Source of the DNA: Thermoleophilia bacterium
GTDB taxonomy: Bacteria > Actinomycetota > Thermoleophilia > UBA2241
Direction of reading: 5' to 3'
Length of the DNA stretch: 64,000 nt
NCBI GenBank assembly: GCA_040776965.1
Contig: JAXGZO010000001.1
Location: 593,419 to 657,418, forward strand
The position numbers and the translations under genes were made by a program. Of this stretch, positions 40,233 through 54,349 are shown one piece after another (positions within the stretch are counted from its first letter, which is position 1; every line of letters starts with the position of its first letter). The notes under the pieces were generated by a model. That model was not told the DNA's origin. It made no database searches and was given only the letters and a program-made list of their open reading frames with translations.

Positions 40233-41062
40233 GTCAGACGGTCGAGAGCGGCGTGGTGGTGGGCCTGATCGGCGGGCGAGGCAGCATGGGGCGCTGGTTG
40301 GAGCAGCGGCTGGTGCACGCCGGCTGCCGGGTGCTCGTCGCCGACGTCTGCGAGGGCCCCGTAAAGCCGGAGTTCGTGGCCGACTGCCAGATCATCGTTG
40401 TAGCTGTACCCATCAGCGCCGTGGAGGAGGTGATGGCCGAGATTGGCCCATACACCCGCCCCGACGGTCTCGTTATGGACATCGCCTCGCTTAAAGAGGC
40501 TCCCCTCGCGGCTATGCTCAAGCACGCCCGCGGCGAGGTGGTGGGGTGCCACCCCCTGTGCGGGCCGACGGTCGACCAACTCGAGGACCAGATCGTGTTT
40601 CTCTGCGAGGGGCGAGGCGAGCGTTGGCGGGGGTGGGTGGAGCGGTTTTGGGAGAGTCAGGGGGCGAGGGTGGTGGAGATCGCCCCCGAGCGTCACGATC
40701 GGCTTATGGCCGTGGTGCAGAGCCTGCGCCACCTTCTGCTGTACGGCTTGGGCGATGGCTTACGCCAGCTGGGGTTCGACCTCAACGACCTGGAGCTGGC
40801 CGGTCCGCGGTTTCGCTCGCTGATGGAGTTGCTCCAGCGGCAAGTCGAGCAGCCTCCCTCGCTCTACGCCGAGCTCGCCCTCGGGAACCCGCACGTTGCG
40901 CAGGCGCTTGAGGCGCTCACCCTCGGTTTTGAGGACGTAAAGTCGACCCTGGCACGGCGTGACCGCCGGGGGCTAGAGGAGACGATGGCACGCGTTGAAG
41001 GCTGGAGCCGAGCTCTGGTTGAGCCCGAGGCGCCTAGGCCAAGAAGCGCATCCAGCGGATAA
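40229..41062 (+). CDS. tyrA: Prephenate/arogenate dehydrogenase
   Basis: Rossmann GLIGGRGSMG and a prephenate dehydrogenase core. GTG at 40229 is 7 nt after GGGGAG. Confidence 0.88.
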   Translation: MSQTVESGVVVGLIGGRGSMGRWLEQRLVHAGCRVLVADVCEGPVKPEFVADCQIIVVAVPISAVEEVMAEIGPYTRPDGLVMDIASLKEAPLAAMLKHARGEVVGCHPLCGPTVDQLEDQIVFLCEGRGERWRGWVERFWESQGARVVEIAPERHDRLMAVVQSLRHLLLYGLGDGLRQLGFDLNDLELAGPRFRSLMELLQRQVEQPPSLYAELALGNPHVAQALEALTLGFEDVKSTLARRDRRGLEETMARVEGWSRALVEPEAPRPRSASSG

Positions 41063-41255
41063 GGCCGAAGTACCAGGCGACGACGCCGAGGATCACGACC
41101 CAATACGATTTGGTGATGGCGATCAGCATGATCGTGATGCCGATCATGGCGAACGTCCACCACCTCCGCGCCTTGAGTTGATCGGCGTTGAGGCTCTCTT
41201 TACCGGAGAACGGCCCCTTCGATCCCTTTGGTGACTCTGTAGATTCTTCTGTCAT
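41034..41255 (-). CDS. Small (73-aa) two-TM membrane protein, convergent with and overlapping the tyrA 3' end
   Basis: Only the last 73 codons (MTEESTESPKGS...WMRFLA) of the long 41034-41885 ORF are plausible. The upstream part of that ORF reads through a tRNA gene. Confidence 0.35.
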   Translation of the reverse strand: MTEESTESPKGSKGPFSGKESLNADQLKARRWWTFAMIGITIMLIAITKSYWVVILGVVAWYFGLIRWMRFLA

Positions 41256-41324
41256 GGGGGGCAGTGTACACGAGATTCGCGGTGGGTGCTGAGTGGTGTG
41301 GCGCGAGGGCGGTAGAATACGGGT

Positions 41325-41798
41325 GTGGACACTACCGGGACCTTCATCGGCGTCGTGAGCGACACGCACGGCCTCTACGACGAGCAGTTCGACGAGCTCC
41401 TCGCCGGCGCGGCTCACATCATCCACGCCGGCGACATCAACGACCCAACCACGCTCGTGCGCCTGCGGCGCCTCGCCCCGCTCACCGCGGTCGCCGGCAA
41501 CACCGATCTGCACGACCCTCGCTTCGATCTGCCGTGGGAGGCGCAGCTGGAGGTCGCGGGCCTGCGCGTGCTCGTCTGCCATATCCTGGAGAGCCTCATG
41601 CGGCATCACGACCCGGTCGCCGAGGGCTTCGACCTCGTGATCACCGGCCACACCCATCGGCCTCGAATCGAGTGGCGCGGCGAGACGCTCTTCGTGAACC
41701 CCGGCTCGGCGAAGAGCCCGCGGGGAGGCCGGGAGCGCACCTTGGCCATCGTCGACGTCGTGGGGGGTCGGCCGCAGCCGCGCATTGTGGTGCTGTGA
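41325..41798 (+). CDS. YfcE/MJ0936-family metallophosphoesterase
   Basis: Carries the GVVSDTHG, AGDIND and GHTH motifs. Confidence 0.8.
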   Translation: MDTTGTFIGVVSDTHGLYDEQFDELLAGAAHIIHAGDINDPTTLVRLRRLAPLTAVAGNTDLHDPRFDLPWEAQLEVAGLRVLVCHILESLMRHHDPVAEGFDLVITGHTHRPRIEWRGETLFVNPGSAKSPRGGRERTLAIVDVVGGRPQPRIVVL

Positions 41799-41815
41799 GG
41801 TGGGGGAGAAGAACT

Positions 41816-41892
<77 letters not shown>

Positions 41893-41929: not shown

Positions 41930-43024
41930 CTACCGCCGCGTGCGACCGCCCGCTCCGTCGCCCACACTGCGCCCCTGCGAGGCGAGCAGCGCGAGGAGGC
42001 TCTCGTTGATGGCGTCGGCGGTCTCGTGGGCGGCGGCCTTCTGCGGGTAGATTTCGTACTTCGCTCGCTCCGGTGCGGGGGTGAGGTTGGGCATGATCAC
42101 GTTGGCGCCGCGAAGGAGGCCGTGAGTCCTGCCCGTACTCCGCTTAAGCAGCGAGAGCGCCGTGGTGGCCGGGAGGTTCGCGTCGGGGCGCACGAGGCGG
42201 GTGAGCGCGATGACCTTGCAGGTCGCGAGCTCGGTGTTAGGCGCCTGGTCGGCGGGCCAGTCGTCGCTCGCGGTGCGGCGTGCGAACTCGTGGCCGAGCG
42301 GCGTATCGGGGTGGGGGAGGTAGGGGCCGATGCCGATCATGTCCATGTCGGTGCTGCGGAAGAGCTCGATGTCGTCGGCGATGGAGGCGTAGGTTTGGCC
42401 GGGGAGGCCGACCATGATGCCGGTCCCCGTCTCGTAGCCGAGCTCCTGAAGGCGGGCGAGGATCGCGAGGCGGTCGCTCACGCGCCCCGGGAGGTCGGGG
42501 TGGATGCGGCGGTAGAGCTGCTCGTCGGAGGTCTCGAAACGCAGGAGGTAGCGGTCGGCGCCGGCCTCACGCCAGAGTGAGAGGTCGGCGTCTGAGCGCT
42601 CGCCAAGGCTGAGGGTGACGGCGAGCTCCGTCTCCTGGCGGAGGCGCCGCACGACGCGGGCGACCCAGTCGGCGGCGAGGCCGTAGTCCTCGCCGGCTTG
42701 GAGCACTACGGTGCCGTACTTGTACGCGCGTGCGCGGTGCGCGCACGCGAGGATGTCGTCGGCGGACATGCGGTAGCGCTCGACCGCGCGGTTGCCCGCC
42801 CGGATGCCGCAGTACGCGCAGCGCCGCACGCAGTGGTTTGAGATCTCGATGAGCCCGCGGAGGTGCACCGCGTCGCCCACGGTGCGGCGGCGTGTGTCGT
42901 CGGCCGCCCGCCAGAGCTGCTCAAGGCGGGTTTCGTCGCGCTCGCGGAGCCAGCGCTCGATCTCCTCGTGGGTGAGGGCGTCGCCGACGCCGATGGCCGG
43001 GCTCGCCTGCGGTCGCCCGGTCAT
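41930..43024 (-). CDS. hydE: [FeFe]-hydrogenase maturase HydE (radical SAM)
   Basis: CVRRCAYCG radical-SAM cluster in a biotin-synthase-like fold. ATG at 43024 overlaps the hydF stop (ATGA). Confidence 0.9.
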   Translation of the reverse strand: MTGRPQASPAIGVGDALTHEEIERWLRERDETRLEQLWRAADDTRRRTVGDAVHLRGLIEISNHCVRRCAYCGIRAGNRAVERYRMSADDILACAHRARAYKYGTVVLQAGEDYGLAADWVARVVRRLRQETELAVTLSLGERSDADLSLWREAGADRYLLRFETSDEQLYRRIHPDLPGRVSDRLAILARLQELGYETGTGIMVGLPGQTYASIADDIELFRSTDMDMIGIGPYLPHPDTPLGHEFARRTASDDWPADQAPNTELATCKVIALTRLVRPDANLPATTALSLLKRSTGRTHGLLRGANVIMPNLTPAPERAKYEIYPQKAAAHETADAINESLLALLASQGRSVGDGAGGRTRR

Positions 43025-44322
43025 CAGCACGGATCGCTTGCCGGCGCGTCGCCTGCGGTCGCCGCCGGCGAGCGGCCGGAGCGCCCCTCGCCCGCCGCGT
43101 GCATCGCCGCGAGGGCCGCCGGGAAGGGCTCGAGCGCTCGCTCGAGGATGCCGAGGCTGAAGGCGATCACGAGGCCGTAGTTGGTGAGGGGTACGCCGGC
43201 TTGTTTGCAGCGCAACACCCTGCGGAGCATCGCCTTGCGGTTAAAGGTGCAGCCGCCGCAGTGCACGATGAGGTCCCACTGTGAGGGGTCCTCGGGGAAG
43301 TCGTGGCCCTGCACGTGCTCTATTTCGAGCTCGCCGCCGACGTACTGCGCGAGCCACCGCGGGATCTTGACGCGTCCGATGTCCTCGGCGATGGGGTGGT
43401 GGCTGCAAGCCTCGGCGATGAGCACGCGGGAGCCCGGCTTGAGGTTGTCGATCGCGAGCGCGCCCTCCACCTGGCTCGTGAGGTCTCCCTTAAAGCGGCT
43501 GAAGAGGATGCTGAAGCTGGTGAGGGGGACCCCCGCCGGGGTGGCGGCCGCGACCTCCTCGAAGGCCTGCGAGTCGGTGATGACCAGCTTGGGCGGGCCC
43601 GTGAGCTGCGCCAGCGCGTAGTGCAGGTCGCGGTCCTTAACCATGAGCGCCAGGGCGTCGTTGTCGATGAGGTCGCGGATCGACTGCACCTGGGGGAGGA
43701 TCAGCCGGCCGCGCGGTGCCTCTTTGTCGATGGGCACCACGAGGACGGCGAGGTCGCCGGGGGCCACGAGGTCGCCGAGGATCGTGGGGTTGTCGATAAA
43801 GTCCGCGGGGGTGCTGTCGAGTAGCGCTTGGCGGAACTCGAGCACCCCTTTGCCCTCGGCGGCGACGGTGGAGACGGGCGTGAGCCCGAGCTCTTGCAGG
43901 CGGGGTATCGGCGGCGGCTGCGTTACCACGTCCGCCTTGTTGGCCACGACGACCGCGGGGATACCGCGCTCCTGGAACTCGTCGAGGATGCCGTCTTCGT
44001 ACGCCCCCCAGGTGCCCGCCTCGGTGACGAGGACGCCGAGATCCGTGCGGTCGAAGACCTGCAGGGTGCGCCGCGCGCGGAGCTCTCCGAGCGCGCCGAC
44101 ATCGTCGATGCCGGCGGTGTCGATAAAGAGCACCGGGCCGAGGGGGAGCAGCTCCATCGGCTTCTCCACCGGGTCGGTGGTGGTGCCGGCGAAGTCGGAG
44201 ACGATGGAGACCTGTTGGCGTGTGATGGCGTTAAGCAGGCTGCTTTTGCCCACGTTGCGACGGCCGAAGAGGCCGATGTGAAGCCGCATCCCCCGCGGCG
44301 TATCCATGAGGCCCGGTTGCAT
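43024..44322 (-). CDS. hydF: [FeFe]-hydrogenase maturation GTPase HydF (alternative starts at 44307 or 44289)
   Basis: G1 GRRNVGKSS, the G3/G4 motifs, and the C-terminal CxH...HCGGC cluster-binding motif. Confidence 0.9.
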   Translation of the reverse strand: MQPGLMDTPRGMRLHIGLFGRRNVGKSSLLNAITRQQVSIVSDFAGTTTDPVEKPMELLPLGPVLFIDTAGIDDVGALGELRARRTLQVFDRTDLGVLVTEAGTWGAYEDGILDEFQERGIPAVVVANKADVVTQPPPIPRLQELGLTPVSTVAAEGKGVLEFRQALLDSTPADFIDNPTILGDLVAPGDLAVLVVPIDKEAPRGRLILPQVQSIRDLIDNDALALMVKDRDLHYALAQLTGPPKLVITDSQAFEEVAAATPAGVPLTSFSILFSRFKGDLTSQVEGALAIDNLKPGSRVLIAEACSHHPIAEDIGRVKIPRWLAQYVGGELEIEHVQGHDFPEDPSQWDLIVHCGGCTFNRKAMLRRVLRCKQAGVPLTNYGLVIAFSLGILERALEPFPAALAAMHAAGEGRSGRSPAATAGDAPASDPC

Positions 44323-44335
44323 GGCTCTCCCGGGG

Positions 44336-44596
44336 TCAGCGGTTGAAGAGCATGGTCTGCGTCTGCACGCCGTCCAGAGCGTCGAGCTTGGCGGTGATCG
44401 CGGTGGCCGTCTCCTCGCCGCCGAGCAGCTCGAGGATGATCAGGCCGCTCGGCGAGCAGGACTGCTCGTCGGTCTCGTGGAGCCCAATGCGCGTTTTAAT
44501 GCTGCAGCCGTACTCGGTGAGCACGCGCTGGACCTCCGCGGCGCCGGCGGAGCGGTTGGCTACGTAGATGCCGAGGATCACAGAGGTGTTGTTCAC
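44336..44596 (-). CDS. Putative iron-only hydrogenase system regulator (TM1266-like small ACT-like protein)
   Basis: 86-aa protein between hydG and hydF with GAGAGGA RBS and GTG start. Position and size match the TM1266 family, which is conserved in hydEFG clusters. Confidence 0.65.
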   Translation of the reverse strand: MNNTSVILGIYVANRSAGAAEVQRVLTEYGCSIKTRIGLHETDEQSCSPSGLIILELLGGEETATAITAKLDALDGVQTQTMLFNR

Positions 44597-44617: not shown

Positions 44618-46021
44618 TTAGCAGAGCACGTCGCGTTGTCCGGAGCGGACGCGGTCGACCATCTTCTGGGTGTGGGCGGCGCGCACGGAGTCCATCTCGC
44701 CGATCTTGTGCGCGATAAGGCGTTCGCCGACCTCGCGCGTCTCGGGATCGCCGTAGTCGAGTAGGTACTCGAGGAAGGTGCTGATGGCGTTGGGGTCGCA
44801 GTGGTGCTTAATGTCGCCCGGCTTGGCGAGATCCATAAAGTCCATGCCGGTGCGGCCGAGCCGGTAGCACGCCGTGCAGAAGGAGGGGACGTAGCCGAGC
44901 TCCGCGATGTCGTGGATGACCTCGTTGAGCGAGCGGTGGTCGCCCAGTTGGAACTGGGCGGCGTCGAACCGCTCGTCCTCCTCGTACCCGCCGGGGTTGG
45001 TGCGGCTGCCGGCGGAGATCTGGCTGACGCCGAGGGCGAAGGTCTCCCGGCGGATGTTCGCCGTCTCGCGGGTGCTCATGATGAGGCCCGTGTAGGGCAC
45101 GGCGAGCCGGAGGATCGCGACGATCTTGCGGAAGTCGACGTCGCTCACCGGCTGCGGCGGTTCGCTCGCCATCTCCGAGCCGGAGGCCGGCTCGAGGCGC
45201 GGCACGCTGATCGTGTGTGGGCCCACGCCGTAGGCGCGCTCGAGCTCGCGGATGTGCTGCATCATGGCGAGGATCTCGAAGCGCCAGTCGAAGAGGCCGA
45301 AGAGGACGCCGATGCCGACGTCGTCGATGCCCGCCTCCATGGCGCGGTGCATACCGGTGACGCGCCAGTCGTAGTTGCGCTTCTTGCCGCCGAGGTGGAC
45401 GTTGCCGTAGGTGCCGCGGTGGTACGTCTCCTGGAAGAGCTGGAAGGTGCCGATGCCGGTGGCCTTGAGCTCTTTGAAGTCCGCCACCGAGAGCGGCGCG
45501 ATGTTGACGTTAACGCGGCGGATCTCGCCGTTGTCGCGCTTTACATCGTAAATGGTCTCGATGGCGTCGAGGACGTACTGGAACCCCTGCTTGGGGTAGG
45601 ACTCCCCGGCGACGAGCAGCACGCGCTTGTGGCCTTCGTCCACGAGCACCTCGATCTCGCTGCGGATCTCCTCCTGCGTGAGCGCGCGCCGCTGGAGCTC
45701 CTTGTTGCGCGCGCGGAAGGCGCAGTAGAGGCAGTCGTTAGAGCAGAGGTTGCTGATGTAGAGCGGGGCGAAGAGCACGAGTCGCGCCCCGTAGATCGCG
45801 TCTTTGACGTCGCGGGCGGCGGCGAAGAGCTCGGCGAGGAGCTCCGGGTCGCTGATGGAGGTGAGGATGGCGACCTCGTCCATCTCCAGGCCGCCCAGCT
45901 CGCGTGCCTTCGCGAGGATCTCGCGCACGAGCCCCGCATCTTTCTTAGTCGCCGCCTCGAGGGCTTCGGCGACGCGGCTTTCGTCGATGAATGAACCGGA
46001 TTCGGCGGGTTCGGTCTCCAT
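44618..46021 (-). CDS. hydG: [FeFe]-hydrogenase maturase HydG (radical SAM tyrosine lyase)
   Basis: N-terminal CSNDCLYC and C-terminal CTACYRLGRTGMDFMDLAKPGDIKHHCDPN (CX2CX22C). RBS GAAGGAG. Confidence 0.92.
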   Translation of the reverse strand: METEPAESGSFIDESRVAEALEAATKKDAGLVREILAKARELGGLEMDEVAILTSISDPELLAELFAAARDVKDAIYGARLVLFAPLYISNLCSNDCLYCAFRARNKELQRRALTQEEIRSEIEVLVDEGHKRVLLVAGESYPKQGFQYVLDAIETIYDVKRDNGEIRRVNVNIAPLSVADFKELKATGIGTFQLFQETYHRGTYGNVHLGGKKRNYDWRVTGMHRAMEAGIDDVGIGVLFGLFDWRFEILAMMQHIRELERAYGVGPHTISVPRLEPASGSEMASEPPQPVSDVDFRKIVAILRLAVPYTGLIMSTRETANIRRETFALGVSQISAGSRTNPGGYEEDERFDAAQFQLGDHRSLNEVIHDIAELGYVPSFCTACYRLGRTGMDFMDLAKPGDIKHHCDPNAISTFLEYLLDYGDPETREVGERLIAHKIGEMDSVRAAHTQKMVDRVRSGQRDVLC

Positions 46022-46112: not shown

Positions 46113-47885
46113 CTAGACGGTCTGCTTCTCGGTGTAGTTGGTGTGGAGCAGTTCGTGTGAGATGTGGCCGCACGGTGCCCCGAGGTACTCCTCGTAGAGC
46201 TTGGCGACGGCCGGGTTTTCGTGTGACTTGCGCAGCTCGCGGCCCTCGTCCTCGCGGAAGATCGCCGCCGTGCGGGCCAGGCGAACCTCGTCGGTCGTGA
46301 AGCGCGGCTGGCCGCCGCCGCCGATGCAGCCACCGGGGCAGGTCATGATCTCGATGAAGTGGTACTCCGCCTCGCCGGCTTTGACCTGCTCGATGACCTT
46401 CTGTGCGTTGACGAGGCCGTGGGCCACGGCGACCTTGAGCTCCGCGCCCTCGAGGAAGGCCCAGTCGCCCTTCGCCCCCTCGATCTTAACCGACGCGGTC
46501 TTGACGCCGTCGAGGCCGGCGATGGGCTCGACGTGGAGGTTGGGGAAGGGGAACGGCACCTGGGTGACGATCTCCCACGCCGTGCGCAGGGCCGCCTCCA
46601 TAACGCCGCCGGAGTTGGCGAAGATGTCGGCGGCGCCGGTGCTGATGCCCAACGGCGCGTCCATCTCCTCGTCGGGGAGGTTGCGGAAGTCGATGCCCGC
46701 CTGCTTGATGAGCGTGCCGAGCTCGCGGGTGGTGAGCACGATGTCCACGTCGCGGGCGCCGCTGTCGTTCATCTCCGGGCGCGCCGCCTCGAACTTCTTG
46801 GCGGTGCAGGGCATGATCGAGACGACCACCATATCTTGCGGCTCCACGCCGATCTTCTTGGCGTAGTACGTCTTGGCGACGGCCCCGAACATCTGCTGCG
46901 GCGACTTGCAGGTGGAGAGGCAGTCGAGCATGTCGGGGTTGAAGTGCTCCATGTAGTTGATCCAGCCGGGGGAGCAGCTGGAGAATTGCGGGAGCGCGAC
47001 CTTCTCGCCGTCGACCAGGGCCTTCTTGAGGCGCAGGAGGAGCTCCGTGCCCTCCTCCATAATGGTGAGGTCGGCCGAGAAGTTGGTGTCGAACACGGCG
47101 TCGAAGCCGAGGCGCCGCAGGGCGGCGGTCATCTTGCCGGTCACGAGCGTGCCCGGCTCGTAGTCGAAGCACTCGCCGAGCGCGGCGCGGATGGCCGGCG
47201 CGGTCTGCACCACGACCGTCTTGGTGGGGTCTTCGAGTGCCGCCCAGACCTGGTCGATCTGGCTGCGCTCCGTGATGGCGCCCACGGGGCAGACGGCCGC
47301 GCACTGGCCGCACTGCACGCAGACCACGTCGCTGAGGTTTTGGGAGAAGGCCGGGCCGATCACGGTGGTGAAGCCGCGGCCCTGCGCGAAGAGCGCGCCG
47401 ACCCCTTGGACCTCGTTGCAGACGGTGACGCAGCGGCGGCAGGCGACGCATTTGCCGGTGTCGCGTACGAGCGCCGGCGTGCTGGCCTCGACCACTTTGC
47501 GGGTCCTCTCGCCCTCGTAGGGGATCTCCTTGACCCCGAGGGTGGCGGCGAGGCTGCGGAGCTCGCAGTCCTCCGAGCGGTCGCACACTTGGCAGTCGCC
47601 GTCGTGCTCCGAGAGGAGGAGCTCGACCACGGTGCGGCGGCCGTTGCGTGCTCTGGCGCTGTTGGTTTTAACGACCATACCGTCGGTGGCGGGCTGGCTG
47701 CACGAGGCGACCAGCGTGCGGGCGCCCTCGACCTCGACGAGACAGACCCGGCACGCGCCGATGCATTGAAGGTCTTCGAGGTAGCAGAGGGTGGGGATGT
47801 GGATCCCCGCTTGGCGAGCGGCCTGGAGCACCGTAGCGCCCTCAGGGACCTCGACCTTGATGTTGTCAATGGTGAGGATTGGCAT
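46113..47885 (-). CDS. hydA: [FeFe]-hydrogenase catalytic subunit HydA (N-terminal 2Fe-2S + His-ligated 4Fe-4S + 2x4Fe-4S ferredoxin domains + H-cluster domain)
   Basis: H-cluster motifs MPCTAKKFE (L2) and EIMTCPGGCIGGGGQP (L3). The L1 motif reads FSSCSPGW instead of the canonical FTSCCPxW. Confidence 0.92.
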   Translation of the reverse strand: MPILTIDNIKVEVPEGATVLQAARQAGIHIPTLCYLEDLQCIGACRVCLVEVEGARTLVASCSQPATDGMVVKTNSARARNGRRTVVELLLSEHDGDCQVCDRSEDCELRSLAATLGVKEIPYEGERTRKVVEASTPALVRDTGKCVACRRCVTVCNEVQGVGALFAQGRGFTTVIGPAFSQNLSDVVCVQCGQCAAVCPVGAITERSQIDQVWAALEDPTKTVVVQTAPAIRAALGECFDYEPGTLVTGKMTAALRRLGFDAVFDTNFSADLTIMEEGTELLLRLKKALVDGEKVALPQFSSCSPGWINYMEHFNPDMLDCLSTCKSPQQMFGAVAKTYYAKKIGVEPQDMVVVSIMPCTAKKFEAARPEMNDSGARDVDIVLTTRELGTLIKQAGIDFRNLPDEEMDAPLGISTGAADIFANSGGVMEAALRTAWEIVTQVPFPFPNLHVEPIAGLDGVKTASVKIEGAKGDWAFLEGAELKVAVAHGLVNAQKVIEQVKAGEAEYHFIEIMTCPGGCIGGGGQPRFTTDEVRLARTAAIFREDEGRELRKSHENPAVAKLYEEYLGAPCGHISHELLHTNYTEKQTV

Positions 47886-47902: not shown

Positions 47903-50900
47903 TTACGAGCAATACTTGCCGTAGTCGCAACGCAGGCAGCGTTTCGCCTCGGCCACGGCGACGGGGGCGGCCCAGCAGAGCTCGACCTCGTCGAAGGACG
48001 AGACGCGCTGCTCGCGGGGCAGCTCCTCGACCGCCGCGCGGTTGTACTCGACCGGGTCGGCGTCGGGGTCGTAGGAGGTTTGCACCTCGGTCTCACGGCG
48101 CCAGAAGGCGTGATTGGCGCCGGTGAGGTATTCGTCGATCGAGGCGGCCGCTCGTTCGCCGGCCCCGATGGCCTCGACGACCGAGGAGGGGCCGGTGGCC
48201 GCATCGCCGCCGGCGAAGAGCCAGTCCGCGGAGGTACGGCCCGTCTGGCGGTCGGTGACGAAGTAGCCGCGGCGGTCGAGCTCGACATCGCAGTCGCCCG
48301 TGAGCGGATCTGCGTCGAGCCACTGGCCGATTGCCGCGATGACGGTGTCGGCCTCCACCACGAACGAGGGGTTCGCGCTGGCGACCGGGCGGCGACGGCC
48401 GCTCTTGTCGTAGTCGCCGAGGGTCATCTCGTTGCAGCGAACGCCGATGACGTTGCCGTCGGCGTCGCGGAGGATCTCCTCCGGCGCCGTGAGCGTGAGC
48501 ACCTGGATGCCCTCGAGGTCGGCGGCGTCGACCTCCTCCGCCCACGCCGGCATCTCCACCCGCGTGCGGCGGTAGAGGATGCGTACCTCCTCGGCACCGA
48601 GACGCAGGGCGGTACGGGCGGCGTCGATAGCCGCGTTGCCGCCGCCGATAACCGCGACCTTTTTGCCCATCGGAGCGGAGCCCGTGAGGTTGTACTGCTT
48701 GAGGAAGGAGAGCCCGTCGTACACGCCGGGGCCGTCCTCGCCGGGGACGCCGATCGTGCTGCCCTGCGGGGCGCCGACCGCGAGGAAGACGGCCTCGTAG
48801 CCGTCGGCCTTGAGGCTCTCGAGCGAGAAGTCGCGCCCGAGCGCCTTGCCGAGCTCGATCGTGGTGCCCATGCGCTCGATCATCTCGATCTCGCGCTCAA
48901 GCTCGTTGCGGGGCAGGCGGTACGCCGGGATGGCTTGAACGAGCATGCCGCCGGCTTTGTCCTCCGCCTCGAAGATCGTCGGCTTATAGCCGAGTCGGGC
49001 GAGGAAGAAGGCGCAGCTCAGGCCGGCGGGGCCGCCGCCGATAATGGCAACCTTACGGGCGGCGTTCGCCTCGTTCTCGATGACGTCGGGGAGAAGCGCC
49101 TCTTGCTCCTGCTCCACCATGAAGCGCTTGACGTGGCGAATGGCGACGGCCGAGTCGATCCCGGCGCGTTGACACTTGCTCTCGCAGGGGTGGAAGCACA
49201 CGCGGGCGCAGATGCTGGCCAACGGGTTGCGGTTGCGGTGGACCCTGAGGGCCTCGTCGTACCGCTCCTCGCCGACCAGCGAGACGAAGGCCGGGATGTT
49301 GACGCTCGCCGGACAGGCGTTGTTGCAGCGGGCCAAGAACATGGAGGCGCAGACGCCGGCCTCGCAGTACTTGTCGCGGATGTGGGCCTCGTACTCGTGG
49401 CGGAAGTGGCGGATCGTCGAGAGGACCGGGTTCGGGGCGGTTTGACCGAGGCCGCAGAGGGCGGTCTCTTGAATGGCCTCGCCGAGCGCGATGAGGCGCT
49501 CTATGTCGCCCTCCTCGCCCTTGCCGTTGGTGATGCGCTCGATGATCTCGAGCATCCGCTTGGTGCCGACACGGCAGGGCGGGCACTTGCCGCAGCTCTC
49601 CTCCTGGGTGAACTCCAGGAAGAAGCGGGCGATGTCGACCATGCAGGTGTCTTCGTCCATGACGATGATGCCCCCGGAGCCCATAATGGCGCCGAGCTCC
49701 TGCAGGGTTGCGTAGTCGACGGGTACGTTGAGGTGCTCCCTCGGGATGCACCCGCCAGAGGGGCCACCGAGCTGGGCGGCTTTGTAGCTCTTGCCGTCTG
49801 GAATGCCGCCGCCGACCTCGTAGATGAGCTCGCCGAGCTGCATGCCGATCGGGACCTCCACGAGGCCCGTGTGCTGCACGTTGCCGCCGAGCGCGAAGAC
49901 CTTCGTGCCCTTACTCTTCTCGGTGCCGGTGCTCGCGTACCACTCGGCGCCCTTGAGGATGATGGGCGCGATGTTGGCGAACGTCTCGACGTTATTGAGT
50001 ACGCTGGGCTTGCCCCAGAGGCCCGAGACGGCCGGGAACGGCGGGCGCGGGCGGGGCTCGCCGCGATGGCCCTCAATAGAGGTCATCAGCGCGGTCTCCT
50101 CGCCGCAGACGAAGGCGCCGGAGCCCATGCGGATCTCGAGGTCGAAGCTAAAGCCGCTGCCCATGATGTCGTCGCCGAGCAGGCCGTACTCGCGCGCCTG
50201 CCCGAGGGCGTGCTCGAGGCGCTCAACGGCGAGCGGGTACTCGGCGCGCACGTACACGTAGCCCTGATGAGCGCCGATCGCGTAGGCGCCGATCGTCATG
50301 CCCTCGATCAGCGAGTGCGGGTCGCCCTCGAGAACCGAGCGGTCCATGAAGGCGCCAGGGTCGCCTTCATCGGCGTTGCAGAGGATGTACTTAACCTCGC
50401 TGTCCTGCTGCTGGGTGAACTTCCACTTGAGGCCGGCGGGGAATCCGGCGCCGCCGCGGCCGCGCAGGCCGCTCGCGAGGACCTCCTCAACCACGTCGGT
50501 GGGGGACATCTCGGTGAGCGCCTTGGCGAGCGCCTGGTAGCCCTCCCGGGCGATGTACTCGTCGATGTTCAGCGGGTTAATGACGCCGGAGTTGCGGAGC
50601 ACGATCTTGACCTGGCGGTTGAAGAACGGGATGTCGTCCATCTCGGCCTGGGTCTTCTCGGTGCCCGGCGCGTGGCTCACGAGGCGCTCGACGATCCGGC
50701 CCTTGAGGAGGTGCTCCTCGACGATCTCCGGCACATCGTCCACGCTGATAGTTTGGTAAAAAACGCCATCGGGGTAGATAAGGGCGACCGGACCCTGGAC
50801 GCACGGACCAAGGCAGCCGGTCTCGATAACTTCGATTTCGTCGGAGAGGCCGCGCTTCGCGAGCTCGGCGCGGACGGCCTTGCTCAGCTCCAGCGCGCCG

Positions 50901-50956
50901 GAGGCGATGCAACCGCCGCCGGTGCAGATCAAAAAGTGACTTCTCACATCAGCCAT
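47903..50956 (-). CDS. hydB: HydB (NuoF-like flavoprotein subunit) fused to a C-terminal GltD/NfnB-like NAD(P)H:FAD oxidoreductase module (1017 aa)
   Basis: N-terminal thioredoxin-like 2Fe-2S, then the NuoF core (GLRGRGGAGFP, CGKCPPCRVGT), then 2x[4Fe-4S], then two Rossmann motifs (VAIIGGGPAGLSCA; VAVIGGGNAAIDAA). Confidence 0.9.
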   Translation of the reverse strand: MADVRSHFLICTGGGCIASGALELSKAVRAELAKRGLSDEIEVIETGCLGPCVQGPVALIYPDGVFYQTISVDDVPEIVEEHLLKGRIVERLVSHAPGTEKTQAEMDDIPFFNRQVKIVLRNSGVINPLNIDEYIAREGYQALAKALTEMSPTDVVEEVLASGLRGRGGAGFPAGLKWKFTQQQDSEVKYILCNADEGDPGAFMDRSVLEGDPHSLIEGMTIGAYAIGAHQGYVYVRAEYPLAVERLEHALGQAREYGLLGDDIMGSGFSFDLEIRMGSGAFVCGEETALMTSIEGHRGEPRPRPPFPAVSGLWGKPSVLNNVETFANIAPIILKGAEWYASTGTEKSKGTKVFALGGNVQHTGLVEVPIGMQLGELIYEVGGGIPDGKSYKAAQLGGPSGGCIPREHLNVPVDYATLQELGAIMGSGGIIVMDEDTCMVDIARFFLEFTQEESCGKCPPCRVGTKRMLEIIERITNGKGEEGDIERLIALGEAIQETALCGLGQTAPNPVLSTIRHFRHEYEAHIRDKYCEAGVCASMFLARCNNACPASVNIPAFVSLVGEERYDEALRVHRNRNPLASICARVCFHPCESKCQRAGIDSAVAIRHVKRFMVEQEQEALLPDVIENEANAARKVAIIGGGPAGLSCAFFLARLGYKPTIFEAEDKAGGMLVQAIPAYRLPRNELEREIEMIERMGTTIELGKALGRDFSLESLKADGYEAVFLAVGAPQGSTIGVPGEDGPGVYDGLSFLKQYNLTGSAPMGKKVAVIGGGNAAIDAARTALRLGAEEVRILYRRTRVEMPAWAEEVDAADLEGIQVLTLTAPEEILRDADGNVIGVRCNEMTLGDYDKSGRRRPVASANPSFVVEADTVIAAIGQWLDADPLTGDCDVELDRRGYFVTDRQTGRTSADWLFAGGDAATGPSSVVEAIGAGERAAASIDEYLTGANHAFWRRETEVQTSYDPDADPVEYNRAAVEELPREQRVSSFDEVELCWAAPVAVAEAKRCLRCDYGKYCS

Positions 50957-50972
50957 GTCGCTTCACCTATTC

Positions 50973-51344
50973 TCAGGTCTTGATCAGGTAGTCGTCGACG
51001 GGGGAGCCGCCCACGAGGTGGGTTTCGACGATAGCGTGGACCTTAGCTTTGTCGAGGAGGCCGTAGCGATACGTGGTGCCGTCGGCCATCGTGATAGTCG
51101 CCATCGGCTCCTGCTCGCAGAGGCCGGCGCAGCCGCTCTGATGGAGGCTTACCGAGGAGGCGTCGGCGGCGGCGAGCTCGGTTATAAAGGTGGCGACGAT
51201 CTCGCGTGCGCCGGCCGCGATGCCGCACGTGCCCATGTGCACGGTCACCTGAACGTCTTTGCGGCCACCCCGTAGATCGATGTCGGCTTTTGCCTTTTCG
51301 GCGAGTGCCCTGAGCTGCTCGGGGCTCGTGATTTTATCGGCCAT
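50973..51344 (-). CDS. Small thioredoxin-like [2Fe-2S] ferredoxin (HndB-like hydrogenase subunit)
   Basis: 123-aa protein with four Cys (CGIAAG...CAGLCEQEP) in a hydrogenase operon context. Confidence 0.7.
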   Translation of the reverse strand: MADKITSPEQLRALAEKAKADIDLRGGRKDVQVTVHMGTCGIAAGAREIVATFITELAAADASSVSLHQSGCAGLCEQEPMATITMADGTTYRYGLLDKAKVHAIVETHLVGGSPVDDYLIKT

Positions 51345-51346
51345 GG

Positions 51347-51883
51347 TTACGCGCTCCTTTCGGCCGGGGTCGCCACGTCGGTGTACTGAGCGATGATCTC
51401 GTTAACTCGCTTTGGCTTGACGCGGTGGTGGACGTCCTCGTCGACCATGATGACCGGCGCGAGGCCGCAGGCGCCGAAGCAGCGGCCGATCTCAAGGGAG
51501 AACTCGAGATCGTCGGTTGTGCCGCCAACGTCGATGCCGAGGTCTTTTTTAAAGGCCTCGAGGACGGCGACGCCGCCCCTTACGTAGCACGCCGTGCCGA
51601 GGCAGATGCGGATGAGGTGCTTGCCGCGGGGCACCGTAGTGAAGAATGAGTAGAAGCCGACGACGCCGGCGACCTCGCTGTACGGTTTGCGGAGCTTCTT
51701 GGCGATGTGCTTGAGGGCGACCTCCGGCAGGTAGCCGAAGATACCCTGGGCGAGCTGCAGCACGGGGATGAGTGCTCCCGGCTTGTCACGATACTCGTCG
51801 ATGACCGCGTCGAGTCGTGCCAGGAGCTCCTCCTCGGTGAGCTCTTCGGCGCAGCACGCGCACGATTTCACCTGTTCAGTCAT
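51347..51883 (-). CDS. hydC: NuoE-like [2Fe-2S] subunit of the hydrogenase (HydC/HndA)
   Basis: Signature CLGTACYVRGG...CFGACGLAPV. Confidence 0.9.
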   Translation of the reverse strand: MTEQVKSCACCAEELTEEELLARLDAVIDEYRDKPGALIPVLQLAQGIFGYLPEVALKHIAKKLRKPYSEVAGVVGFYSFFTTVPRGKHLIRICLGTACYVRGGVAVLEAFKKDLGIDVGGTTDDLEFSLEIGRCFGACGLAPVIMVDEDVHHRVKPKRVNEIIAQYTDVATPAERSA

Positions 51884-51933: not shown

Positions 51934-52428
51934 TTAGGGCAGCGCTTGCTGGTAGGCGACGAGTGCCGGGAGCTTGGCGGGCAGCTCGCTGCTACGCAGG
52001 CTCGTCAGCTCGTCGTCGTTGCGGAGTGAGATGCGGAACTCCACCTCGGGGTGAGTGGCCACCACGACGAGAAGGCTGGTGGCCACATCGCCGAGCGGTG
52101 GACGGTCGACGTTGTTAAGGCTCATATGGACGCGCACGGATGCACCGCCGAGCTCCTCGGAGCGGCCGAGTGCGAGTCCGCCACCGCTCGCCTCGGCCGC
52201 TTGTCGAAAGAGGCTGAGGCCGAGGCCGGTTTTTTTGGTCGGTTTCGTCGTGAAGAAGGGGTTGAGGGCCTCGCTGGGCTGCACCGGAAGGCCCGGCCCG
52301 TTGTCGTCGATAGCCATAGTGAGGCTGTCGCTGGCGTGATCGGCCGCGATGTCGACGGCGATGATCGTCGCTCCGGCGCGGAGCGAGTTCTCGAGAATAT
52401 CGAGGAGGTAGAGCGAGAGATCATGCAT
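51934..52428 (-). CDS. Stand-alone histidine-kinase-like ATPase (HATPase_c) protein
   Basis: N-box/G-box-like DDNGPGLP and GLGLS motifs. No HisKA/DHp domain or phospho-acceptor His region. Confidence 0.75.
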   Translation of the reverse strand: MHDLSLYLLDILENSLRAGATIIAVDIAADHASDSLTMAIDDNGPGLPVQPSEALNPFFTTKPTKKTGLGLSLFRQAAEASGGGLALGRSEELGGASVRVHMSLNNVDRPPLGDVATSLLVVVATHPEVEFRISLRNDDELTSLRSSELPAKLPALVAYQQALP

Positions 52429-53161
52429 CGTCGACGCTCCTGCCGTGCTCGCCGCGCAGTGCGGCGGCGAGCTCCGTGAACGACGGATTGGCCACGTGCA
52501 GGGTGGTGCGTACGGCGCCGATATCGCTGAGGTAATGAGCGTCTGATGAGTGCAGGATCGGCAGGCCGTGGATGCGGAACTCCTCCTCGGCGGGGGAGCC
52601 GGGCGCGATGTGGCGGGAGAGCTCTACGGCGTCGAAGCCCGCGTCTGTTGGGAAGAAGCCGAGCTGGCCGATGGCGCCGAACGTTTTGCGGTCGATATGC
52701 GCGGCGACCGCGAGGCCGCTGTGACGGTGGATGAGCGCTGCCGTGTCGTTGATGTCGAGGAGGGTGGCCATCGCGAGGGCCTTCTCCTCTGTGGCGAGGA
52801 GCTCGCCGGCGGCGCTGAGGACCGACTGGGTGCCGAAGAACGCCTCGTAGCCGTCGTCGACGGGCGGTAGCGACGCCCCCGCCTCCGCGGCCGCCGCCTC
52901 CGCCGCCTCCGCGGTGGGGAAGAGGCCGACGACGTGGCACTCCTCGGCCGAGGTGATCTCCATGCCGGCGAGCACGACGAGGTAGTCGCCGGCCGCCTCT
53001 TGCACGGCAGCGACGTTGCGCGCACTGTTGTGGTCGCAGATCGCGATCATCCCGAGGCCTTCAGCCAGCGCTCGCTCGACGATAGCCGCCGGGGTCATAC
53101 TCTCGTCCGCGCAGGGTGAGAGCGCCGTGTGAATATGGAGATCGGCGAAACAGTGGTTCAC
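52421..53161 (-). CDS. PHP-domain protein (hydrogenase-operon associated)
   Basis: Motifs DLHIHTALSPC, ICDHN and HSSDAHY. Confidence 0.8.
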   Translation of the reverse strand: MNHCFADLHIHTALSPCADESMTPAAIVERALAEGLGMIAICDHNSARNVAAVQEAAGDYLVVLAGMEITSAEECHVVGLFPTAEAAEAAAAEAGASLPPVDDGYEAFFGTQSVLSAAGELLATEEKALAMATLLDINDTAALIHRHSGLAVAAHIDRKTFGAIGQLGFFPTDAGFDAVELSRHIAPGSPAEEEFRIHGLPILHSSDAHYLSDIGAVRTTLHVANPSFTELAAALRGEHGRSVDDA

Positions 53162-53508
53162 ACATGGCTTCCTTTGACGCCGAGTTCGTAGAGGCGGCCG
53201 ACGGTGGTGAACGTATCGCAGGGTGAGATGTAGAGCTTAATACCTACGGAGCGCGCCTTAGCGACGACGTCGTCTTCCGGCTGGCGGCCGCTCGCGAAGA
53301 CGACGGCCGCGAGGTTGGCGTGGCTGGCCACCGCGATCACGTTGAGGTGCACCTGCAAGGTGACGAGGACGCCACCCTTGGGGCCGTGGGCGAGGACGTC
53401 GCTTAAGAGGTCGGAGGCGTAACCCTGCGTGATCTCGGCGTCGCCGCCGGCGAGCTCCGGGGTGAGCTCCGTGAGGGTCAGTTCGTTGGCGAGGTACTCG
53501 AGATTCAT
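53158..53508 (-). CDS. DRTGG-domain protein
   Basis: 116-aa protein in a hydrogenase operon context, consistent with the DRTGG family. The assignment is by pattern only. Confidence 0.6.
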   Translation of the reverse strand: MNLEYLANELTLTELTPELAGGDAEITQGYASDLLSDVLAHGPKGGVLVTLQVHLNVIAVASHANLAAVVFASGRQPEDDVVAKARSVGIKLYISPCDTFTTVGRLYELGVKGSHV

Positions 53509-54266
53509 AGGGGGATCTCCTTTAGGGGACGCTCCAGCGCCGAGCAGACCTCATAGTTCTCGCAGAGATCGAGTGCGTTGAGGGACTCGAGTGCGACGGC
53601 GTTCTCTCCGTCGTCGTCGACGTGGGAGAAGAAGACGGCGGACTCGAGCGCGGCGATGATATCGATGTACTCGACGAAGATGTCGTCGGGAAGGTGGAGG
53701 GGGATGGGCGAGAAACTCACGATGCTCTTAATGCCGGCGCCGACGAGCGCCTCTGCGGCGCTCTGCGCCGCCGATGCCGGAAGCGCTAGGACCGCTGTCT
53801 CAATGCCCGAGTCGTGCACGACCTCCTCGAGCGCGGAGGTGTGGAAGCAGGGGCAGCCGTGGAGAGAGGAGCCGACAACCGCCGGGTTGGTGTCGAAGGC
53901 GGCGGTGATAGACGCGGAGGAGAGCGTCGTTGAGGCGTGTGCGAGGATAGCCCGCCCGAGGTTGCCGACGCCGACCAACGCGATACGGTGCTGCTGCTCG
54001 TCGTCGAGGAACGCGCTCATGCTCGTGATGCACGCGGCGACGCCGTACCCCTTGCTGGGGCTGCCCGAATACCCGATAACCATGAGGTCGCGACGGACCT
54101 GAGCCGCGCTCACCGCCGCGTGCCGCGCGAGCTCGTGGGAGTAAACATGGGCGGTGCCTTCCTCGCGGAGGGCGAGCAAGATGCGGCGGTAGCGACTTAT
54201 GCGAGAAACAGTCTTTCTGGATACCACCGCAGCTCCTGAATCGGCGAGGGGATCGCAAGAGAGCAC
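53505..54266 (-). CDS. rex: Redox-sensing transcriptional repressor Rex (start possibly at an internal GTG giving VVSRKTVSRISRY...)
   Basis: Winged-helix N-terminus (SRYRRILLAL) and NADH-binding Rossmann (IALVGVGNLGRAI). Confidence 0.85.
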   Translation of the reverse strand: MLSCDPLADSGAAVVSRKTVSRISRYRRILLALREEGTAHVYSHELARHAAVSAAQVRRDLMVIGYSGSPSKGYGVAACITSMSAFLDDEQQHRIALVGVGNLGRAILAHASTTLSSASITAAFDTNPAVVGSSLHGCPCFHTSALEEVVHDSGIETAVLALPASAAQSAAEALVGAGIKSIVSFSPIPLHLPDDIFVEYIDIIAALESAVFFSHVDDDGENAVALESLNALDLCENYEVCSALERPLKEIPL

Positions 54267-54270
54267 ACGC

Positions 54271-54286
54271 TGTGAAATTCATCACG
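54271..54286 (+). promoter_or_regulatory. Candidate Rex operator half-palindrome TGTGAAATTCATCACG just upstream of rex
   Basis: Matches 10 of 12 defined positions of TGTGAA-N4-TTCACA. Confidence 0.3.
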
Positions 54287-54349
54287 ATTATCGCTGTCGC
54301 GCTCTCGTGGTGTCAAATGCGGGCGTTGCCTTTTCGAGCGGTACAATGA

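Follow-up and report, generated by a model that had tools for sequence, protein, structure and literature searches.

The closest described relatives of the hydrogenase analysed here include multimeric [FeFe]-hydrogenases, and the nearest of them is already known to depart from the usual TSCCP form of the L1 motif. HydA1 of Acetobacterium woodii, from the electron-bifurcating HydABC(D) complex (PDB 7Q4V, 7Q4W, 8A5E), carries a serine, Ser301, described by Katsyv et al. (JACS 2023; PMC10021017) as a serine ligand of the H-cluster cubane on the basis of a 3.4 A cryo-EM model. The same work reports A. woodii HydABC to be active, bidirectional and electron-bifurcating, with an ordinary H-cluster infrared signature and normal Hox, Hred and Hhyd (PMC10021017). 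Its specific bifurcating activity is 4.1 U/mg, versus 20.5 U/mg for the Cys-type enzyme of Thermoanaerobacter kivui; the serine may carry a cost or otherwise affect function, but many further differences separate these two enzymes. CpI of Clostridium pasteurianum is a monomeric, ferredoxin-dependent enzyme. Both CpI (4XDC) and T. kivui HydA1 (8A6T) exhibit the canonical TSCCP, with a Cys ligand. The NAD(P)-linked, bifurcating Hnd (HndABCD) of Solidesulfovibrio fructosivorans is a further relative, likened here by gene set and not by sequence: it combines a NuoE-like subunit, a small thioredoxin-like [2Fe-2S] protein, a NuoF-like subunit and HydA. The serine ligand has so far been treated in passing, in one structural paper.

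The same four-gene logic is found on the minus strand of the window analysed here (64,000 nucleotides of a Thermoleophilia contig), within a gene string corresponding to a rex-hydC-hndB-hydB-hydA-hydG-hydF-hydE operon. The genes are as follows.

53505..54266, minus strand: rex, first gene of the string, a transcriptional repressor that senses the NADH/NAD+ redox state (NCBIfam NF003995, E-value 3.3e-54, 183.6 bits, cut-off 126)
52421..53161, minus strand: PHP-domain protein, 246 aa (PF02811, PF13263)
51934..52428, minus strand: protein with HATPase_c only, 164 aa (PF02518, E-value 2e-12)
51347..51883, minus strand: hydC, NuoE/HoxE-like [2Fe-2S] subunit, 178 aa (NCBIfam NuoE/HoxE-family models, E-values down to 2e-44)
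50973..51344, minus strand: small thioredoxin-like [2Fe-2S] protein, tentatively HndB-like, 123 aa (PF01257, E-value 5.2e-05, 23.6 bits)
47903..50956, minus strand: hydB fused to a GltD/NfnB-like module, 1017 aa (PF01257, PF01512, PF10531, PF10589, PF14691, PF07992)
46113..47885, minus strand: hydA (hndD-like), catalytic subunit, 590 aa (Pfam, NCBIfam NF040763 and PDB matches)
44618..46021, minus strand: hydG, H-cluster radical-SAM maturase (TIGR03955, 528.9 bits, cut-off 312)
44336..44596, minus strand: TM1266-like small protein, putative iron-only hydrogenase system regulator (PF21699, E-value 1.8e-06)
43024..44322, minus strand: hydF, H-cluster GTPase scaffold (PF18133, PF18128, PF01926)
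41930..43030, minus strand: hydE, H-cluster radical-SAM maturase (TIGR03956, 302.3 bits, cut-off 254.6)

The HndB-like assignment is tentative because the PF01257 score lies just below the 24.8-bit cut-off. The maturase set is complete, with hydG, hydF and hydE directly downstream of hydA on the same strand. A search for Rex operators returned best matches with three mismatches, not clearly above chance.

HydA begins with an F-domain made up of an N-terminal [2Fe-2S], a His/Cys [4Fe-4S] and a 2x[4Fe-4S] domain; the H-domain comes next, with a small-subunit domain fused behind it (PF13510, PF10588, PF22117, PF02906 with E-value 2.5e-97, and PF02256 with E-value 4.6e-24). The protein scores 876.7 bits (cut-off 765) against NCBIfam NF040763, "NADH-dependent [FeFe] hydrogenase, group A6", over positions 3-571 of the 571 in the profile, and 517.6 bits (cut-off 405.95) against TIGR02512. 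Its best PDB match is A. woodii HydA1 (7q4v_A, E-value 5.2e-189, residues 8-587 aligned), which shares the domain order, the xSCSPGW form of L1 with Ser at the cubane-ligand column and canonical L2 and L3 motifs, and likewise partners a NuoF-like HydB and a NuoE-like HydC. The hosts belong to different phyla, Bacillota for A. woodii and Actinomycetota here. T. kivui HydA1 and CpI share the fold, the domain order, the proton pathway, L2, L3 and the M353/K358/M497 environment, and have a Cys ligand where HydA here has Ser.

The L1 motif reads FSSCSPGW (F301 S302 S303 C304 S305 P306 G307 W308 in translation), encoded on the minus strand of positions 46962-46985 as TTC TCC AGC TGC TCC CCC GGC TGG. 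A previous inspection of the letters alone (the sequence-only reading) had reported this non-canonical motif, and it stands after the DNA was read again and translated. The motifs and key codons are located as follows.

46962..46985, minus strand: L1 motif FSSCSPGW, residues 301-308, read from the DNA and aligned without gaps with A. woodii, T. kivui and CpI
46974..46976, minus strand: Cys304 codon TGC, retained, aligned with CpI C299, which relays protons to the adt amine
46971..46973, minus strand: Ser305 codon TCC, at the [4Fe-4S]H ligand position, aligned with A. woodii S301, T. kivui C299 and CpI C300
46788..46814, minus strand: L2 motif MPCTAKKFE, with C360 at the CpI C355 ligand and K363 at CpI K358
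46311..46352, minus strand: L3 motif EIMTCPGGCIGGGG, with C516 at CpI C499, C520 at CpI C503 and Thr515 at CpI A498

FSSCSPGW aligns without any gap to ITSCSPGW of A. woodii, FTSCCPSW of T. kivui and FTSCCPGW of CpI, which places Ser305 at CpI C300, the second Cys of the pair. In this alignment the motif is not shifted and one Cys of the pair is left, and the column numbering reproduces the published pair of Ser301 in A. woodii and Cys299 in T. kivui (PMC10021017). The pair had been described as one [4Fe-4S]H ligand plus one proton relay, which the alignment bears out: the relay is kept as C304, and the ligand position holds Ser305. The three remaining Cys ligands of the cubane are in place as C360, C516 and C520 (CpI C355, C499 and C503). 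L2 and L3 are canonical, as had also been noted, with the exception of Thr at the CpI A498 position, just before the first Cys of L3, where A. woodii has Ala (MACPGGC). HydA does not match the strict TSCCPxW form, its SSCSPGW replacing Thr by Ser as well as Cys by Ser, whereas A. woodii retains Thr-Ser at the start of L1. This strict consensus is too narrow, since the active A. woodii enzyme deviates from it at the same Cys, and HydA is not excluded by it.

Cys is by far the commoner Fe-S ligand, and one might suppose a local register shift in which C304 ligates the cubane while S303, S305 or nothing serves as proton relay. We regard this as improbable. Re-registration by one residue is not rigorously distinguishable in a 3.4 A map, but the L1 segment is gap-free and flanked by an invariant P-G-W anchor, and in their A. 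woodii model Katsyv et al. made Ser301 the ligand (PMC10021017). Moreover, the C299S variant of CpI is reported to be completely inactive (PMC11376134), whereas the A. woodii complex is active and has the signatures of the normal redox forms.

The residues surrounding the H-cluster bear on another proposal, that a Ser in this motif is characteristic of unusual or sensory hydrogenases. Group C/D enzymes are marked, among other features, by a non-canonical L1 (PMC8163306), and the putative sensory TmHydS and TamHydS of these groups also depart from the TSCCP consensus. However, these proteins miss the other Cys (C299) together with the rest of the proton pathway, often exhibit a change at M353, and end in a Cx2Cx4Cx16C domain that may be accompanied by PAS (PMC8163306). 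HydA here has none of these features. Its proton pathway is kept throughout (E278, E281, R285, C304 and S324, corresponding to CpI E279, E282, R286, C299 and S319), and M353, K358 and M497 in CpI numbering are also conserved. A Pfam search of the whole protein found no PAS domain and no Cx2Cx4Cx16C domain, the C-terminus being an ordinary Fe_hyd_SSU domain alone. In addition, HydA is above the cut-off of the group A6 catalytic family (NF040763), its neighbours are HydB, HydC and the maturases, and an active bifurcating hydrogenase, that of A. woodii, bears the same Ser. A HydS-like sensory or regulatory protein with crippled catalysis is thus very unlikely, and the sensory connotation given to the Ser does not hold. 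A Ser in L1 is not a mark of group B either, for which the literature gives TSCCCP, with three cysteines. Apart from the strict L1 form, and with its H-domain, small-subunit domain, L2, L3, proton pathway and adjacent HydE/F/G, HydA has, by sequence, the features that define a group A [FeFe]-hydrogenase.

The serine is shared by all near relatives. A [TS]SCSPGW motif is present in every one of the 120 closest database proteins (73-100% identity) and in all 80 related genome loci (65-86% identity), which span at least 10 phyla; the nearest loci are from Thermoleophilia metagenome-assembled genomes, with up to 86% identity. Many close homologues are annotated as "NADP-reducing hydrogenase subunit HndD" (JGI). 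Among the 80 loci the residue is encoded by TCG (26), TCT (25), TCC (19), TCA (9) and AGT (1). The use of five different Ser codons indicates that the Ser has been kept by selection while the codon drifted. The same observations bear on a sequencing or assembly error, or a decaying pseudogene: a single base separates TCC from TGC, but the Ser recurs in all of these proteins and independent loci, the hydA ORF is full length, the other catalytic residues are intact and the maturase set is complete. This explanation is effectively refuted, and the conservation across homologues answers the worry about read quality that the sequence-only reading had raised. In two of the loci (L029 and L056), long tblastn spans resembled insertions in hydA; these candidates were rejected, the spans corresponding to adjacent paralogous fragments.

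The description of TSCCP as otherwise invariant proved wrong in a wider sample as well. SCSP occurs in 28 of 150 diverse HydA representatives (~19%), a set clustered at 50% identity and drawn from relatives near the present HydA, and one large clade has the Ser form throughout. A single evolutionary origin of the Ser was considered with a neighbour-joining tree of 136 H-domains. The tree is star-like; SCSP sequences are densest near the present HydA, A. woodii and T. kivui but are interleaved with SCCP sequences. Several Cys/Ser switches, or poor resolution of the tree, could explain this mixed pattern.

The representatives also bear on a swap of ligands, in which C326 of HydA, at the CpI A321 column, would replace CpI C300 as the fourth thiolate. 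This column is Cys in A. woodii as in HydA here, and Ala in CpI and T. kivui. Yet Cys is found there in 52 of 91 Cys-type representatives and in 23 of 29 Ser-type representatives, without specific covariation, and at least four Ser-type sequences have Ala. We rejected the swap because Cys at this column is as common in Cys-type enzymes; it is disfavoured to the point of being hardly credible.

HydA is therefore best read, with high confidence, as the predicted catalytic subunit of a cytoplasmic HydABC/Hnd-type hydrogenase, in which Ser305 is a fixed natural variant at a ligand position and an H-cluster and turnover are to be expected. The protein would correspond to the HydA/HndD of a multimeric [FeFe]-hydrogenase coupled to NuoE/NuoF-type subunits, in keeping with the NCBIfam "group A6" label. 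C304 would act as the proton-relay Cys beside the dithiomethylamine bridge, and S305 would take the place of CpI C300, normally one of the four thiolates on the [4Fe-4S] part of the H-cluster. The Ser is fixed and under selection throughout a large clade that includes A. woodii HydA1. Because the Ser301 enzyme of A. woodii, from the same clade, is active, a normal H-cluster held by three Cys and one Ser may be expected in HydA, assembled by the adjacent HydE/F/G, and the enzyme would turn over H2; both the role of the Ser as a cubane ligand and the activity are taken by analogy from the literature on this homologue. As an O-donor ligand, the Ser might modestly shift the redox potential or electronic coupling of the cubane and so suit NAD(P)H-linked operation. 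The Ser variant itself is not new, being already present in that structurally solved, active enzyme, and in principle the present gene shows nothing that A. woodii HydA1 does not.

The distribution of the motif matters for the annotation of hydrogenases. TSCCP is widely applied as a filter for functional [FeFe]-hydrogenases: homologues without the canonical motifs were discarded in PMC6085437, and in PMC3787301 two TSCSPGW sequences, which also lack an L3 cysteine, were contrasted with one hydrogenase called fully equipped for function. As about one fifth of the representatives and a whole multi-phylum clade carry SCSP, a strict motif filter would drop a large, probably active NAD(P)H-linked group, and these hydrogenases would go missing from metabolic reconstructions of anoxic environments. 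A natural O-donor on the H-cluster cubane would also provide a ready-made system for studying how the [4Fe-4S]H potential controls catalytic bias.

The partner subunits agree with the assignment of HydA. As in HydABC/Hnd (Bfu-type) enzymes, a NuoE-like HydC lies adjacent to a NuoF-like HydB with FMN/NADH and N-terminal [2Fe-2S] domains. In this type of hydrogenase, the C-terminal 2x[4Fe-4S] ferredoxin-like domain of HydB is the proposed ferredoxin site. In the present HydB a thioredoxin-like [2Fe-2S] domain and a NuoF FMN/NADH core come first, and a di-[4Fe-4S] domain and an FAD/NADPH oxidoreductase domain after them. A. woodii HydB, a protein of 599 aa without a GltD module, is matched by residues 1-545 (E-value 1.7e-244), up to its residue 547; from about residue 529 the present protein has PF14691, a di-cluster domain of GltD type, with the FAD/NADPH domain behind it. 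Residues 544-1012 match 9bov_A, 8oh5_C, 9n5u_A (NfnA) and 4ylf_B. Since HydB here carries this GltD fusion, the physiological reaction may differ from that of A. woodii.

The HydB::GltD fusion is conserved across phyla, the class that carries it being found in Actinomycetota, Spirochaetota, Bacteroidota, Atribacterota, Lentisphaerota and others. Our literature searches found no description of a bacterial HydB::GltD hydrogenase, the sole match for such a fusion being a hybrid complex from archaea whose HydB bears a "GltA domain". Nor, to our knowledge, does HndC bear a GltD fusion.

It is possible, though we put it forward as a speculation with the odds against it, that the Ser-ligated cubane is an adaptive redox-tuning device, fixed in this widespread HydABC-type class with the HydB::NfnB/GltD NADPH-FAD fusion. 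Such an enzyme would unite sites for NAD(H) and NADP(H) with an H-cluster, and could catalyse, for instance, 2 NADPH -> NADH + H2, an Nfn-like bifurcation with protons replacing ferredoxin, the Ser setting the potential at which electrons enter or leave the H-cluster for such chemistry.

Both halves of the fused HydB have homologues in transhydrogenases. The NuoF-like B subunits of the Bfu-type StnABC and NfnABC are homologous to its N-terminal half, and the NADPH/FAD GltD-like modules of StnABC, NfnABC (8OH5, 9BOV, 9N5U) and NfnAB (4YLF) to its C-terminal half. In those complexes, which have no H-cluster, the GltD module is placed on a NuoG-like subunit or on a separate protein, whereas at the present locus it extends the NuoF-like subunit at its C-terminal end, and a complete HydA is the partner.

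The HydA ORF (590 aa, 46113-47885, minus strand) exhibits Pfam [2Fe-2S], NuoG-type [4Fe-4S], 2x[4Fe-4S] ferredoxin-like, and Fe-hydrogenase large-subunit (E-value = 2.5e-97) and small-subunit domains. It scores 876.7 bits against a cut-off of 765 in the NCBIfam family NF040763, "NADH-dependent [FeFe] hydrogenase, group A6". Among solved structures, the best matches are to HydA1 of the electron-bifurcating HydABC complexes of A. woodii (7q4v/8a5e; E-value = 5.2e-189) and T. kivui (8a6t; E-value = 1.6e-179), followed by the clostridial enzyme CpI (E-value about 1e-134), our residue numbering reference. Two of the H-cluster motifs, L2 and L3, and one L3 residue discussed below are located as follows in the HydA translation:

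46788-46814, minus strand: L2 motif, MPCTAKKFE
46311-46352, minus strand: L3 motif, EIMTCPGGCIGGGG
46341-46343, minus strand: codon of Thr515 in L3 (MTCPGGC), CpI A498 column

Read directly, the DNA at 46962-46985 (minus strand) is TTC TCC AGC TGC TCC CCC GGC TGG, so that the L1 motif is F301-S-S-C304-S305-P-G-W308, exactly the deviation claimed in the sequence-only reading. L1 aligns without gaps among the query (FSSCSPGW), A. woodii (ITSCSPGW), T. kivui (FTSCCPSW) and CpI (FTSCCPGW). Columns were assigned by counting residues along the printed alignments and verified in a 140-sequence MAFFT alignment. C304 corresponds to CpI C299, the proton relay to the adt amine, and S305 to CpI C300, a [4Fe-4S]H ligand, as well as to A. 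woodii S301 and T. kivui C299, in agreement with the residue numbers of Katsyv et al. 2023 (PMC10021017). The roles of CpI C299 and its neighbours are summarised in PMC11376134. It is thus the second Cys of the pair that is replaced by Ser, as had been proposed; A. woodii HydA1 shares this Ser, in contrast to T. kivui HydA1 and CpI.

The substitution is widespread. The motif [TS]SCSPGW is found in all 120 closest database proteins (73-100% identity; TSCSPGW in 83, SSCSPGW in 37). A scan of species-representative genomes yielded 80 related loci (65-86% identity) from Thermoleophilia and other Actinomycetota, Myxococcota, Desulfobacterales, Spirochaetota, Bacteroidota, Lentisphaerota, Verrucomicrobiota, Fibrobacterota, Atribacterota and one Bathyarchaeia bin, every one with the Ser motif. 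Their Ser codons are TCG (26), TCT (25), TCC (19), TCA (9) and AGT (1); five codons for one kept residue is the pattern expected from purifying selection on the amino acid. This codon diversity, together with Ser in 120/120 proteins and 80/80 loci, rules out a sequencing error at Ser305. Among the 150 best representatives of 50%-identity clusters, 28 exhibit [TS]SCSP and 95 [TS]SCCP, which, with the 80 loci, contradicts the earlier description of the motif as invariant. Other natural L1 forms in this set (SSCP, SGCP, SACP, SQCP, SSSP, SASP, SCSA/SCSI) indicate that both positions of the Cys pair vary in nature. One representative (P0121) is a 4122-aa protein with seven H-domain-like stretches. 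In a low-resolution neighbour-joining tree, most Ser-type sequences lie around the query, A. woodii and T. kivui, and Cys-type ones are mixed in among them. The Ser variant was mentioned briefly in Melainabacteria hydrogenases in 2013 (PMC3787301).

The hydA of the Bathyarchaeia locus (L029, DATKVG010000230.1) shares 71% identity with the query and has the TSCSPGW form; the NuoF-GltD gene upstream of it is 77% identical in its NuoF part and only 35% in its GltD part. The presence of this locus on an archaeal-binned contig could be due to horizontal transfer or to a binning error. Long tblastn spans suggested an insertion in hydA of L029 and of another locus, L056; these proved to be only an adjacent paralogous fragment.

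The sequence-only reading had taken the Ser as characteristic of unusual or sensory hydrogenases. The putative sensory enzymes TmHydS and TamHydS lack C299 and all other proton-pathway residues, often with a changed M353, and such enzymes bear a C-terminal Cx2Cx4Cx16C motif, with or without PAS (PMC8163306). In contrast, the query HydA retains C299 and the proton pathway: CpI positions E279, E282, R286, C299, S319, P324, Q325, M353, C355, K358, E361, M497, C499 and C503 are all conserved. Pfam detected neither a PAS domain nor an extra C-terminal cluster domain in it. The gene context is also that of a working enzyme, and the reading as an unusual or sensory hydrogenase is not supported. In gene order, the operon comprises:

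53505-54266, minus strand: rex
52421-53161, minus strand: PHP-domain gene, 246 aa
51934-52428, minus strand: stand-alone HATPase_c gene, 164 aa
51347-51883, minus strand: hydC/nuoE-like
50973-51344, minus strand: small thioredoxin-like [2Fe-2S] ORF resembling hndB, 123 aa
47903-50956, minus strand: hydB
46113-47885, minus strand: hydA
44618-46021, minus strand: hydG
44336-44596, minus strand: TM1266-like gene
43024-44322, minus strand: hydF
41930-43030, minus strand: hydE

The 123-aa ORF gives a weak PF01257 match (23.6 bits, slightly below cut-off), and through it the operon resembles the four-subunit layout of Hnd.

The A. woodii HydABC hydrogenase is active in both directions and bifurcates electrons (4.1 U/mg). 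Its reduced state was solved at 3.4 A with all cofactors resolved, the HydA1 Ser being treated as a ligand in the model, and its Hox, Hred, HoxH and Hhyd signatures are ordinary (PMC10021017). On these comparisons the Ser is a conserved, already reported natural variant among multimeric, NAD(P)H-linked [FeFe]-hydrogenases of the catalytic kind, of which the query hydA is a new actinobacterial member. The Ser-type clade is large, and strict TSCCP filters would overlook it.

The four cubane-ligand positions of the query are three Cys and one Ser, in an otherwise intact active-site environment. The H-cluster would be assembled as usual and HydA would turn over H2; with one Fe bound by an alkoxide/hydroxyl donor, a modest change of the cubane potential would be expected, which could matter for an enzyme trading electrons with NAD(P)H-level carriers. 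A ligand swap is unsupported for the Cys that the query and A. woodii share at the CpI A321 column, since Cys-type sequences have Cys there equally often (52/91, vs 23/29 Ser-type). Covariation is strongest at CpI A498, which precedes the first L3 Cys, next to cubane ligand C499: the share of sequences with Ala there is 79% in the Cys type and falls to 31% in the Ser type. The query has Thr515 at this position, unlike CpI, A. woodii and T. kivui, which all have Ala. This covariation could be second-sphere co-adaptation or simply shared ancestry.

HydB is a 1017-aa fusion of a NuoF-type N-terminal part and a GltD/NfnB/StnC-like C-terminal part. Residues 1-545 match A. woodii HydB (599 aa, E-value = 1.7e-244), and residues 544-1012 match GltD/NfnB-like NADPH-FAD modules (9bov_A, 8oh5_C, 9n5u_A (NfnA), 4ylf_B), the structural matches belonging to Bfu-type transhydrogenases and NfnB. 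The C-terminal module comprises di-[4Fe-4S] and FAD/NADPH parts, and its GGGPAG, GGGNAAIDAAR and YRR motifs presumably serve FAD and NADPH binding, as in GltD/NfnB. In about 70 of the 80 related loci, the gene just upstream of hydA encodes the same NuoF::GltD fusion, which thus defines an enzyme type conserved across many phyla. The Ser can occur apart from the fusion, as A. woodii carries the former but lacks the latter. The searchable literature yielded no account of a bacterial hydrogenase with this fusion, and the HydB partner is apparently uncharacterised; the sole related mention found is an archaeal hybrid complex whose HydB has a "GltA domain" (PMC11216029). In related transhydrogenases the GltD module is joined to a NuoG-like subunit instead (PMC7483475), in contrast to the NuoF-like HydB here. 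From about residue 529, the GltD-type di-cluster domain replaces the usual C-terminal ferredoxin-like domain of HydB, so that the complex may no longer use ferredoxin. As a hydrogenase, it could be linked to both NAD(H) and NADP(H), or be Nfn-like.

Unrelated genes flank the operon: at one end they encode aromatic amino-acid biosynthesis, at the other glutamate dehydrogenase and a rhomboid protease. Immediately after hydE and on its strand comes a 283-aa ORF (41034-41885, minus) that exhibits no Pfam/NCBIfam match and, given the GC-rich window, may not be a real gene. Directly upstream of the rex start, CTGTGAAATTCATCACGA at 54270-54287 (plus strand) differs by three mismatches from the Rex operator (TTGTGAAnnnnTTCACAA). 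It is a weak operator candidate, the whole window containing three such hits vs 0.53 expected, a count equalled in 3 of 100 shuffles.
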